DNA of 18,237 nt, taken from the NCBI GenBank assembly GCA_023137195.1, contig JAGLPV010000029.1, forward strand, positions 1 to 18,237, in the 5' to 3' direction. The stretch comes from Candidatus Aenigmatarchaeota archaeon. GTDB lineage: Archaea > EX4484-52. The notes beneath the pieces were generated by a model. The model searched no databases. It was not told where the DNA came from and was given only the letters and a program-made list of their open reading frames with translations. The translations under genes and the position numbers were made by a program. Numbering within the stretch: the first letter of the stretch is position 1; each line of letters starts with the position of its first letter. This document shows, in pieces, positions 16,368 to 18,237 of this stretch.

Positions 16368-16670
16368 ATGAAGATACCAAAAACAGTCAAAAGATTTTGT
16401 CCTTTTTGCAAAACAAATCACGAATGTAAAGTCAATCGTGTGAAAACCGGGGGGCGAAGAAAAACAAGTTCCTTGAAAGCTGGGAGTAGGTACAGGCTGA
16501 AGAAATTACATAAAGGTTATGGAGGATCTCCTTATCCCAAAATAGAACATGGTCTGACTTATGGTGCAAAAAAATCCCAGAAGGTGCTTATTAAATTTAC
16601 ATGTAGTGCTTGTTCTAAAAGCCACCAGTCTAATATTGGAAGGGCAAAGAAATTTGAGATTCTTAAATAA
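16368..16670 (+). CDS. rpl44e: 50S ribosomal protein eL42 (L44e)
   Basis: MKIPK....FCPFCK..H, GYGG.P.P, K..K......C..C.K.H zinc-ribbon pattern. Confidence 0.94.
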   Translation: MKIPKTVKRFCPFCKTNHECKVNRVKTGGRRKTSSLKAGSRYRLKKLHKGYGGSPYPKIEHGLTYGAKKSQKVLIKFTCSACSKSHQSNIGRAKKFEILK

Positions 16671-16700
16671 TCCACAGGAACGCACGAGAACCCACAAGAA
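16671..16700. repeat. Three imperfect 10-bp tandem repeats
   Basis: TCCACAGGAA / CGCACGAGAA / CCCACAAGAA immediately after the rpl44e stop. Confidence 0.55.
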
Positions 16701-16738
16701 AGTATTTTAATCTATAGTTAAACATGATTGAAACTTTT

Positions 16739-16754
16739 CCGCCAAATTTATATA
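16739..16754 (+). promoter_or_regulatory. Putative archaeal promoter (BRE + TATA) facing the cassette region
   Basis: CCGCCAAA followed by TTTATATA (16747-16754), a near-canonical BRE-TATA arrangement with no ORF start at the expected distance. Confidence 0.5.
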
Positions 16755-16761
16755 CTTCTCT

Positions 16762-16855
16762 CTTTACTGTTTTGGATATACGAAGTTTTTCTGTAGCGTA
16801 TCGGAAGAAAAATTTGGGTGAAGCCGAGGGCTGAACCGCATATCTCTTGTTAAAT
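16762..16855 (+). mobile_element. attC-like integron cassette recombination site (left R'' box degenerate)
   Basis: GATATACG (16775-82) and CGCATATC (16837-44) form an inverted pair, followed after 4 nt by GTTAAAT (16849-55, matches GTTRRRY). Internal hairpins AAGTTTTTCT/AGAAAAATTT and AGCC-gag-GGCT. The expected ...TAAC reads CTTTACT. Confidence 0.6.
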
Positions 16856-16938
16856 CCAATTATTACTCGGAACCAGCATGAAAGAAACACAGAAATGTTA
16901 AACACTAAGTAGGGGATTTTCTTCTAAAATAGCACAAG

Positions 16939-16946
16939 TTTATATA
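16939..16946 (+). promoter_or_regulatory. Putative TATA box of the cassette ORF
   Basis: TTTATATA about 22 nt upstream of ATG 16969, consistent with a leaderless archaeal transcript. Confidence 0.55.
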
Positions 16947-16968
16947 TTCTCAACTACTCAATAACATT

Positions 16969-17937
16969 ATGAATTGGACTACAAGAGGTAATGGCACATG
17001 GGAAAAAGTTGATGAGACATCATTTAAACAATTAGACATAGAGAAAGAGATTAATGGTGAAAAGAAAGCAGTATTTCATCAATACACAGAGATTAACTTT
17101 TCCAACTATAAATTTAGCTGTAATGTTAAATTTCTTGAAATAGGTAAACAACCTAATGGTCAGCAATGGGGAGAGGCAAAATTAATTTTTACAGATGCTG
17201 ATAACTCTGAAAAATTCAGATTAGATTTTATGGATGTATCACCCATTAAAACCTGTTGTCTAACTTATTTTGGATTTCAACAGAATTTCCCCCTAGAAGT
17301 CACTAAAGAAGGTGGCATTAATATTGAATTTTTTCTACGATCAGTCATAAGTTCTGCTGGTGGAAGGAAGATACTTATATCATTAATTGTTGATGGAAAT
17401 GATGTATTTACTAATTTTGAGATTAAAAAAGAATTTAATAAGCATATTGGTATCGGAACGTATCTTGCTAAAGTGCAATTCAACAATATAAAAATTGAGA
17501 AACTACCATCTAAGAAGTGCTTTGTAGTAATGCCTTTTAATTCTAGACGTGACTATATGTATGAAAATGCAATTGTAAAAGCTTTAGAAGAGAAGGATTC
17601 ATTCACATTTGAGAAACCGTACAGGTTAGACAAGAGTTTAAAATCGGGTTCTATTCCAAAAGAATTACAAGAGAAAATCAATGTTGCTGACCTTATTATA
17701 GCTGATATAAGTGAAAAAAATTTGAATGTTTTTTATGAAATTGGTTACTCCTACGCATTAGAAAAAATTACTTTATTATTGAGAGAAGATGGATCTAACT
17801 TTAATATACCCTTTGATATCGTTGGTGACCGCTATGTAAAATACAAACTCCCTATGAAGCAAGAAGACTTAGACCAAGAGATGAAGATTCTTAAAGATAA
17901 GATAAATAATTTCATAAAAACCAATGTTCTAGAATAA
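16969..17937 (+). CDS. Two-domain protein: N-terminal beta-sandwich (concanavalin A-like/DUF1080-like) plus C-terminal nucleoside 2-deoxyribosyltransferase-like domain
   Basis: C-terminal CFVVMPF...I..AD.IIADIS..N.NVFYEIGY..AL.K...IPFDI is the NDT-like pattern. N-terminal W...G.W, F.NY.FS..VK, IGIGT....VQF.NIKI suggests a lectin/glucanase fold (weaker). Sampled lines are about 25-27% GC. Confidence 0.75.
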   Translation: MNWTTRGNGTWEKVDETSFKQLDIEKEINGEKKAVFHQYTEINFSNYKFSCNVKFLEIGKQPNGQQWGEAKLIFTDADNSEKFRLDFMDVSPIKTCCLTYFGFQQNFPLEVTKEGGINIEFFLRSVISSAGGRKILISLIVDGNDVFTNFEIKKEFNKHIGIGTYLAKVQFNNIKIEKLPSKKCFVVMPFNSRRDYMYENAIVKALEEKDSFTFEKPYRLDKSLKSGSIPKELQEKINVADLIIADISEKNLNVFYEIGYSYALEKITLLLREDGSNFNIPFDIVGDRYVKYKLPMKQEDLDQEMKILKDKINNFIKTNVLE

Positions 17938-18001
17938 ATCAGGAAAATCCCCTTTCTCTACAAAACTGTAAGTCTTAGACTGCTGTGTAATGTTGGTTCC
18001 T

Positions 18002-18175
18002 GCGTCATAACTCTTCGTCGCTAACGCTCCTTGTCCTCCCACTCGTCCCTTCGGTCACTCGTAGGTCGGAGGTTAACAGCGATTATCCATTACACTCCGA
18101 CCGCCCACTACGTAGTTGATCTCCGTTCCACCCAATCTGCTCCGCAGGACTTCGGATAATCACGATGTTATACGC
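18002..18175 (+). mobile_element. Compound attC-like element (best-formed site 18071-18173)
   Basis: TAACAGCGATTATCC (18074-88) ... GGATAATCACGATGTTA (18154-70): perfect GATTATCC/GGATAATC boxes and TAAC/GTTA ends. Internal palindrome ACTACGTAGT and hairpin CTGC-tcc-GCAG. About 53% GC over 18001-18180 by hand count. Confidence 0.7.
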
Positions 18176-18199
18176 CCCTACGACTGAAAGGAGGAGAGC

Positions 18200-18237
18200 A
18201 TGGCTGAGTTCAGAAAATATTTTTCGTTCTTATTCAT
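18200..18237 (+). CDS. 5' fragment of a probable next cassette ORF (MAEFRKYFSFLF..., truncated by the window edge)
   Basis: AAGGAGG (18188-94) 5 nt before ATG 18200, about 30 nt after the attC-like GTT. The frame is open to the window end. Confidence 0.5.
   Translation, partial: MAEFRKYFSFLF

Follow-up and report, generated by a model that had tools for sequence, protein, structure and literature searches.

Integrons are defined by the integrase IntI, and their canonical attC sites are bounded by outer boxes of the form RYYYAAC and GTTRRRY and carry extrahelical bases that serve strand choice. Other elements exploit Xer recombination: in the CTX phage, for example, a folded single strand mimics a dif site, and the pdif sites of Acinetobacter plasmids are plain 28-bp double-strand sites that bound modules. 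According to the available text of Cortez et al. (2010, PMC2958812), archaeal dif is a double-strand site that occurs once per chromosome and does not lie beside xerA. For archaeal integrons, the available text of Ghaly et al. (2022, Sci Adv, PMC9668308) reports 539 attCs across 75 metagenome-assembled genomes (MAGs) of archaea that belong to nine phyla, together with six IntIs, all of which have the IntI-specific domain and were found with the two-profile rule of IntegronFinder; most matches were integrase-less arrays. Here we analyze two palindromes that flank a single open reading frame (ORF) behind the ribosomal protein gene rpl44e on contig JAGLPV010000029.1 of a Candidatus Aenigmatarchaeota archaeon (assembly GCA_023137195.1). 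The window, by which we mean the whole stretch of DNA analyzed, is the entire contig of 18,237 nt (C22), and its source genome (G000) comprises 1.42 Mb in 57 contigs and is 85% complete. The comparison set consisted of 42 genomes of one small archaeal phylum; searches at the order, class and phylum level returned the identical 42. A preliminary description, made by inspecting the sequence, had taken the palindromes for attC-like sites of an archaeal integron-like system. The arrays, one-ORF intervals, hybrid boxes and array-end recombinase genes described below agree with that proposal.

Two palindromes of one structural family

The window was scanned, with filters off, with R2, a covariance model built from 63 elements, all of them from other genomes. 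Exactly two significant matches were obtained on the whole window, the next best reaching 12.2 bits (E 1.3). Element 1 lies at 16761-16857 on the + strand, in the '+' orientation of the model (59.7 bits, E 4e-13), and has BLAST relatives in other genomes; a search with 16745-16875 against the other genomes of the order returned stretches that are 78-92% identical in several families. It consists of a degenerate 5' box (TTAC, 16764-16767), a stem P1, a conserved hairpin P2, a hairpin P3 and the 3' box GTTAAAT (16849-16855). Element 2, which has a long P3, lies at 18069-18173 on the minus strand, in the '-' orientation of the model (35.3 bits and E 1e-6 with R2; 36.4 bits with model R1), and its boxes read TTAAC (18073-18077) and GTTATAC (18167-18173) on the + strand. 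Its tail (17995-18068, minus strand), delimited by the GC profile and by comparison with family tails, is purine- and GC-rich on the minus strand, contains small hairpins and ends in the family motif ...AGTTATGACGCAGG. With 1.2 kb between them, elements 1 and 2 lie in opposite orientations. Both palindromes are real, and they are members of one family. They lie where the preliminary description had placed them; the second is indeed GC-rich (GC 0.47-0.55 in the stretch that holds it) with TAAC...GTTA boxes, a single low-GC ORF (16969-17937) does separate the pair, and a covariance model from relatives now supports both. Single-sequence folds of either element were no better than those of shuffles (z -0.75, -0.90 and +0.03), so that the support for the palindromes comes from the family and not from the single sequences.

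When aligned, the family members share a 5' box ending in ATAAC, an unpaired spacer, the variable stem P1, a junction strand GAAG with hairpin P2, a junction strand TTTGG with hairpin P3, the return strand of P1, a spacer, a 3' box beginning with GTTAT and, usually, a purine- and GC-rich tail of 60-100 nt made up of small hairpins. The centre of the site is a conserved three-way junction, and sites measure 80-130 nt. In an alignment of 83 elements, which was fitted to the model so that its figures lean towards it, 94.8% of the cells are paired versus 69.8% in shuffles (0 of 500 shuffles reach 94.8%) and 31-51% in slid controls, and compensatory changes occur in 28 of the 29 pairs. All eight pairs of P1 show compensatory changes (95.7% paired), and 5-6 nt are unpaired on each side between P0 and P1. 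The TAAC/GTTA helix, by comparison, is nearly invariant: its four core pairs are kept in 71-79 of the 83 elements, and the boxes do not covary. The AAC core is present in 71 and the GTT core in 77 elements. The conserved junction strands GAAG and TTTGG may act through their sequence, as recognition motifs, instead of being paired. Elements were found in 37 of the 42 genomes with R1 and in 34 with R2, and the five genomes of family f2 of the phylum contained no element detectable with R2 (0/5).

The preferred folding strand was assessed from mismatched pairs and from loops. Among the non-Watson-Crick cells, G·T and T·G outnumber A·C and C·A by 94 to 25, and by 48 to 4 in P1, counts taken from an alignment fitted to a model that rewards G·U. 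Because of this G·T excess, we take the model strand, which is antisense to most cassette genes, to be the one that folds. Loops were counted for elements together with their tails, in hairpins whose stems are perfect and at least 4 bp long. On the model strand 115 of the 188 triloops are GNA, whereas the other strand has 5 and shuffles have 5.0; C(GAA)G leads with 51, before T(GCA)A with 35 and C(GTA)G with 15, and GNRA tetraloops number 19. GNA triloops closed by C·G form unusually stable DNA mini-hairpins. Their abundance supports, without proving, a single-stranded DNA substrate. The sites are thus asymmetric between strands in the order of P2 and P3, in their G·T pairs and in their GNA loops.

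Several further observations concern the elements and their surroundings. At its base, P2 has a G·T (G·U) pair (columns 29/125 of alignment A3; 16785/16813 region of the window) that 77 of the 83 elements retain. AT-rich, TATA-like boxes were noticed by eye ahead of some element copies. A second conserved module of the form ..GAGAC-ATATGTCC-GNA-GGAC..G/C run..TTCCGTTTTT, a hairpin followed by a T-run, is located 25-70 nt upstream of some 5' boxes and also at the far end of some tails. Examples of this ATATGTCC/TTCCGTTTTT module are found in the source genome (C1, at about 800-860 and 1090-1130; C45, upstream of 33770) and in locus L017 (at about 880-930); it may belong to the site itself or act as a terminator for the adjacent cassette gene. 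No Rfam family matches the elements. On the window, Rfam (at gathering thresholds and at E<=10) and ARAGORN gave nothing relevant, just three chance snoRNA-like matches. RNase P RNA, signal recognition particle RNA and an intron-bearing tRNA were dropped as candidates for the GC-rich stretch, there being no Rfam or ARAGORN support. A small ORF that runs over element 1 (16663-16905, minus strand) matches no Pfam family, and the element accounts for it.

Cassette arrays and XerA-family recombinases in related genomes

Arrays, taken as at least two same-strand sites less than 4 kb apart with cassette ORFs, occur in relatives and not in the window. Ten array-bearing contigs of relatives contain 51 elements, which lie on one strand per contig without exception. 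Exactly one ORF of at least 60 aa was found in 30 of the 41 intervals, and elements are spaced by a median of 1,028 nt. Of the 58 array ORFs, 40 run opposite to the model orientation and 18 run with it. No Pfam family was found for 48 of the 83 ORFs in or beside arrays, a set that includes some flanking housekeeping genes. The annotated cargo includes MNT/HepT and AbiEi/AbiEii pairs, GmrSD, DUF4365, an HNH protein, a D12 methylase, a GNAT and a GDSL lipase. Sites can also have housekeeping genes between them, because at one locus (L083; G001:C82, 4914-8315) an array-adjacent recombinase gene is followed by ftsZ, a glycosyltransferase gene and another element. In the source genome itself, the elements are mostly dispersed singles behind genes and not arrays.

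To compare neighbouring sites, positions 4-10 of the 3' flank of each element k were matched with the reverse-complemented 5' flank of the next element (k+1). The mean match was 4.63/7, with at least 5 in 35 of 49 junctions and true junctions mostly at 5-6, whereas the controls gave 3.27 (own 5' flank), 3.16 (element k-1) and 2.95 +/- 1.4 (random pairs). The bases that follow G|TT therefore pair with the 5' box of the neighbour and not with that of the same element, as expected of cutting and joining at the boxes. Tail similarity, in turn, tracks the junction of the same element (0.47) and not that of the next (0.21, with a background of 0.20). The tail is thus inherited with its own junction, which gives a cassette unit of the form C - junction - GTTA - tail - gene - 5' flank - TAA. 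Read along most genes, such a unit would run from gene to site with a crossover at the distal G|TT, which corresponds to integron geometry.

The integron-integrase profile TIGR02249 reached its cut-off in none of the 42 genomes, 10 of which are at least 90% complete, and the tyrosine recombinases found with TIGR02249 or PF00589 are all of the XerA family. Their matches to TIGR02249 always consist of two pieces (model positions 1-180 and 237-315) that are about 13 aa apart in the protein, so that model positions of about 181-236 are skipped. In our reading, the skipped part would be the IntI-specific domain, which agrees with that domain being described as 'surrounding patch III' in the available text of Ghaly et al. 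(PMC9668308). Scores against NF011946 were 126-153 bits, compared to a cut-off of 435, while the XerA profile NF040815 was passed by all six recombinases tested, array-adjacent ones included (224-268 bits; cut-off 220). In an alignment of 13 sequences, the catalytic residues (R, K, H, R, H and Y, assigned by eye) do not vary. In the source genome, PF00589 revealed just two XerA-like genes, at C1:6574-7434 and C45:31061-31969. The preliminary description had left room for a system that is either integrase-less or served by an intI gene elsewhere. In this genome there is no intI beside the elements, and an intI elsewhere is unlikely in view of the 42 genomes below the cut-off and of the IntI-specific stretch that the recombinases found do not have.

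A quick maximum-likelihood tree of 43 recombinases, for which the thorough search is unfinished, contains one clade that follows taxonomy, includes the C45 gene and presumably represents the housekeeping XerA, and two separate paralog clades, A with 12 rows, the C1 gene among them, and A2 with 3 rows. Several genomes have 2-4 XerA-family copies. An element is located within 6 kb of 7 of the 15 genes in clades A and A2 (four at 276, 279, 912 and 1,152 nt) versus 3 of the 25 genes in other clades; many of the element-less recombinase genes sit on contigs of 2-7 kb. In two arrays, XerA paralogs lie 180-190 nt behind the last element, and the site closest to the recombinase gene scores as an ordinary member of the family (42.5 and 57.7 bits) and lies about 180 nt from the start codon. 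The element is upstream of the recombinase gene and on the same strand in 8 of 10 adjacent cases. Flipped to the orientation of the cassette genes, this order would be the integron layout, with the integrase gene divergent from the cassettes. The nearest relatives of these recombinases outside the comparison set (62-63% identity, in records titled Pacearchaeota, Nanoarchaeota or 'archaeon') likewise show an element followed by a recombinase gene on the same strand at 2 of 3 loci, and ten more distant loci (two archaeal MAGs, one Methanosarcinales record and seven bacterial records) have no element. The XerA-family recombinase is therefore, by its adjacency, the likely catalyst. In the source genome, a 1,602-aa ORF (C1, 1379-6187) lies between two elements (532 and 864) and the clade A recombinase gene.

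A putative reversed cassette behind rpl44e

The two sites in the window would be explained best by a single cassette of 1,318 bp that sits in reverse within the GTT box of a resident site standing alone behind rpl44e. Element 1 does not have the usual GC-rich tail behind it (GC 0.33). Instead, 16850-16862 in reverse complement is a family 5' flank ending in ..AATTGGATTTAA, and the same string is found verbatim before two elements in other genomes. From 18167 onwards the + strand carries a box and a tail that are oriented as in element 1. The stretch 18168-18237 is 94% identical over 34 nt to a tail directly behind a '+' element (G031:C44), and 94% identical over 31 nt to a later part of the tail of another '+' element (G036:C160), with matching distances. 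In metagenome contigs this stretch reaches a depth of 159.6 versus 15.3 for the rest of the window in run X1, with depths of 40 in X3 and 94.8 in X4, and the loose ends that precede 18166 correspond, in all three runs, to the 3' halves of '+' elements. Because of the 5'-flank reading, the tail homology and the depth and loose ends, 16761-16849 and 18168-18237 are interpreted as the two halves of one resident site. The putative inserted cassette then spans 16850-18167 and has, on the minus strand, the array-unit order C - three-way junction - GTTA - tail - ORF - 5' flank - TAA. Its left junction would be the G|TT in the 3' box of element 1 (16849/16850), with the break anywhere in the shared GTTA. 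The right junction would be the G|TT at 18167/18168; from 18166 on, the sequence is of a multi-copy tail type that elsewhere stands behind '+' elements. The presumed displaced tail of element 1 (18168-18237, + strand, '+' orientation of the model), identified by tail homology, runs to the contig end. Element 2, its tail and the ORF together form a normal cassette end.

The ORF (16969-17937, + strand, 322 aa) has a low GC content and a C-terminal domain that resembles TIR or nucleoside 2-deoxyribosyltransferase domains. Its C-terminal half matches Pfam PF05014 with E 2e-4, below the cut-off, and a PADLOC TIR effector with E 2.4e-6; its N-terminal half has no known family. Atlas look-alikes of the same length (0.96-0.97) are mostly bacterial and carry PF05014 on 13-36% of their members. 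No match to the ORF was obtained in the other 41 genomes, save for a weak one to the C-terminal domain in G036 (28% identity, E 9.7e-8). As read by eye, the ORF likely has a TATA box of its own near 16939-16948. That it encodes a defence-type effector, in line with other cassettes, is a fair guess from these similarities.

The comparison with relatives also changes how some other features of the locus are understood. The preliminary description had regarded it as the first part of a cassette array. Just one cassette is visible, the sites are inverted and the contig ends 64 nt beyond the outer box of the second palindrome, so that the start of an array is not apparent here. The 6/7 complement between GGTTAAC and GTTAAAC, which had been taken as a trace of former circularisation, is at chance level: positions 4-10 score 4/7 and the box of element 1 scores 3/7, against 2.95 +/- 1.4 for random pairs. 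By hand count, the match is 3/7 at 16849 and 4/7 at 16897, both chance values, and box complementarity therefore does not fix the left cassette boundary. The supposed Shine-Dalgarno sequence plus ATG of a further ORF (18190-18203, GGAGGAGAGC-ATG) is located inside the conserved tail; two homologous tails have no ATG there, and 12 codons are left before the contig ends. Circularised junctions were not seen in the metagenome contigs. A joint from 16798 to 18205 in X1 (side 25, 10 foreign letters) is not interpretable and probably represents another family copy. In run X5, from marine sediment and another study, the ORF and element 2 (16960-18170) are covered at about 97% identity with small indels, and little of the rpl44e side is present. 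This match places the cassette or its host in a second habitat; the contigs are short, and holes in them prove nothing. One X5 contig piece stops fitting the window at 18170, which hints at another context for the cassette.

Upstream of the cassette, the window contains proC/proA/proB-like genes and a conserved ribosomal block L18e-L13-S9-L44e (Pfam). The last gene of this block is rpl44e (ribosomal protein L44e; 16368-16670, + strand; PF00935, E 7e-12). Gene content after rpl44e is not invariant: in a genome of the same genus, rpl44e is directly followed by the gene for a small membrane protein, and an element is absent there. A short motif just 3' of the rpl44e stop (16656-16702, ..CCACAGGAACGCACGAGAACCCACAAGAAAG..) is unrelated to the attC-like family. 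It recurs with 81-96% identity in the source genome on C21 (twice), C42, C37, C33, C57 and C55, and also in G003, G004 and G009, and might be a terminator or another small repeat. Beside rpl44e in a genome of family f2 (L010; G004:C14, about 1850-2500), there is a tandem run of units of about 100 nt that are bounded by TTAACC...GGTTAACGG palindromes. This run might represent another type of site that belongs to a system of this kind.

Competing explanations and comparison with known systems

We consider it probable, as an explanation of the whole, that the elements are attC-like sites of folded single-stranded DNA served by a XerA-type recombinase, and that the window holds a reversed cassette at a lone site. 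The sites would act like integron attC and bound single-gene cassettes in same-strand arrays, with the strand antisense to most cassette genes as the folding strand. Exchange would be catalysed by the XerA-family recombinase that lacks the IntI-defining stretch and is encoded at array ends, and the junction patterns point to the gene-distal box, at its AA|C / G|TT triplet, as the place of exchange. Before the insertion, the window would have carried a lone resident site behind rpl44e. A circular 1,318-bp cassette, consisting of the gene for the TIR/nucleoside 2-deoxyribosyltransferase-like protein and its own site, would then have integrated in reverse at the GTT of the resident distal box, and the insertion would have parted the resident junction (16761-16849) from its tail (18168-18237).

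A number of points weigh against this explanation. With respect to the sites, the full RYYYAAC and GTTRRRY boxes are present in just 18 and 23 of the 83 elements, the family boxes being closer to RYRYAAC/GTTRYRY; the consensus structure has no conserved bulge or obvious extrahelical bases in P1; and the pair counts and G·T counts depend on the model-fitted alignment. With respect to the recombinase, its link to the sites is one of adjacency, and this link is not exclusive: 8 of the 15 clade A and A2 genes have no element on their contigs, which are often short, and 3 of the 25 others have one, the genomes G005 and G017 carry 1-3 elements with a single XerA, and the tree that separates the clades is the quick one. 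With respect to the insertion, the boxes of the cassette itself pair poorly beyond GTTAA (3/7 by hand count, versus at least 5 in 35 of 49 array junctions), and none of the 41 array intervals is inverted, so that there is no second reverse insertion among them. Neither a circular-cassette nor an empty-site junction was found in the short metagenome contigs of runs X1-X5, where holes in the cover of X3-X5 prove nothing. An inversion between two sites is conceivable as an alternative history of the window.

Three other explanations of the family were weighed against the same evidence. We regard it as unlikely that the system is an ordinary integron with canonical attC sites, a true IntI that was left unassembled in incomplete MAGs and XerA-like genes that are housekeeping or unrelated. 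The box, spacer, stem, variable centre and size of the sites and their AAC and GTT cores would suit such an integron, as would the arrays and their cargo; the source genome is incomplete and arrays break assemblies, and the available text of Ghaly et al. (PMC9668308) also describes mostly integrase-less arrays with just six IntIs in the 75 archaeal MAGs. What argues against it is that TIGR02249 fails in all 42 genomes, the ten most complete included, and that the source genome has just its two XerA-like genes, while XerA paralogs occupy the place behind the last element in two arrays and lie within 1.2 kb of an element in four cases. Moreover, most boxes depart from RYYYAAC/GTTRRRY, and a long conserved tail is not described for attC. 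The XerA identity of the genes could alternatively mean that the housekeeping XerA of the host is exploited in trans, with no dedicated integrase or fixed platform and with the adjacent paralogs as passengers. All six recombinases tested, adjacent or not, are XerA by NCBIfam, elements persist in one-XerA genomes and are mostly dispersed singles in the source genome, and the presumed insertion in the window is at a lone site far from any recombinase. We nonetheless think this quite improbable, as the paralog clades that stand apart from the taxonomy-following clade hold most of the adjacent cases (7/15 versus 3/25) and the order of element and gene is the same in 8 of 10.

It is very improbable, in our view, that the elements are structured intergenic repeats (repetitive extragenic palindromes or miniature inverted-repeat transposable elements), small RNAs or terminators, and that the arrays reflect their repeated insertion between genes. 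Many copies in the source genome do stand singly just behind ORFs, some have TATA-like AT-rich boxes before them (by eye), and 77 of 83 elements retain the G·U pair at the P2 base, all of which would suit such repeats or RNAs. Hybrid flanks that link the boxes of elements k and k+1 are, however, unexpected for static repeats or RNAs, the strand that folds is the antisense strand for 40 of the 58 array ORFs, and GNA triloops outnumber GNRA tetraloops by 115 to 19. The boxes are invariant without covariation, Rfam has no match, and recombinase genes are adjacent. The preliminary description had itself considered dispersed repeats unlinked to ORF boundaries as an alternative, and the 30 one-ORF intervals out of 41 and the hybrid junctions speak against it.

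The explanation by folded attC-like sites and a XerA-type recombinase bears on how integrons are recognised. Standard surveys seek an IntI-specific profile plus an attC model, as was done according to the available text of Ghaly et al. (PMC9668308), where most archaeal matches were filed as integrase-less. The P2 motif of the present family is absent from the spreadsheet supplement of that study, which seems to list no attC sequences. If a XerA paralog indeed services the arrays, cassette capture would be possible without the IntI-specific domain, an archaeal phylum with small genomes would have a built-in gene-exchange platform that standard screens mislabel or miss, and the step from Xer/dif to integrons could be tested with a natural intermediate. 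The cargo of toxin-antitoxin pairs, restriction genes and TIR-like effectors suggests a shuffling of defence genes in organisms that are thought to be host-dependent. It is quite possible, although we would not yet call it likely, that the system represents a second kind of integron: a phylum-wide capture platform that uses a XerA paralog without the IntI-specific domain as its integrase and extended folded-DNA sites with a three-way junction and a hairpin tail, that either arose independently from Xer/dif or is a surviving relative of the ancestor of integron integrases, and of which the window would show a fresh capture at a lone site. In the literature outside subscription journals, we found no description of a Xer-driven cassette platform.

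Among the Xer-based systems, the CTX phage resembles the present one in that a Xer-type recombinase acts on a hairpin of one strand and integration occurs at a short conserved core. Such elements, however, integrate at the single chromosomal dif, whereas here there are many sites, cassette arrays and recombinase paralogs. The pdif modules are likewise small sets of genes bounded by Xer-type sites, and their inverted flanking sites recall the pair in the window, but the folded three-way junction and the same-strand arrays set the present family apart. With archaeal XerA/dif, as described in the available text of Cortez et al. (PMC2958812), the system shares the recombinase family by NCBIfam and a site with two short arms in inverted orientation around a spacer of about 6 nt; it differs in that tens of folded sites per genome flank accessory genes. 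A scan of the source genome for a plain dif-like palindrome (TAAC-N4-9-GTTA) gave no unique candidate. The same scan showed two near-identical GTAAC-N8-GTTAC palindromes with perfect arms of 12 nt, 64 nt apart, on C55 (7288-7385).

The closest likeness is to integrons. As in integrons, imperfect palindromes with AAC/GTT boxes, an unpaired spacer and a second stem divide same-strand arrays of mostly single-ORF cassettes, the junction boxes are hybrid, and one strand, antisense to most cassette genes, appears to fold. A tyrosine recombinase gene at the array end is divergent from the cassette genes, and the cargo is rich in unknowns, toxin-antitoxin pairs and restriction or defence genes and includes an acetyltransferase. 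Unlike integron integrases, the recombinase lacks the IntI-specific stretch and scores as XerA, and the site adjacent to it appears to be a full element instead of a distinct attI. The sites differ in their conserved three-way junction, the hairpin-rich tail of 60-100 nt, the lack of clear extrahelical bases and the RYRYAAC/GTTRYRY-like boxes, and the cassette in the window at least seems, by eye, to carry its own promoter. Taken together, the system appears integron-like in every respect that can be tested from sequence, yet it would not be a member of the IntI-defined family, because it fails the IntI test and departs from that family in the anatomy of its sites.

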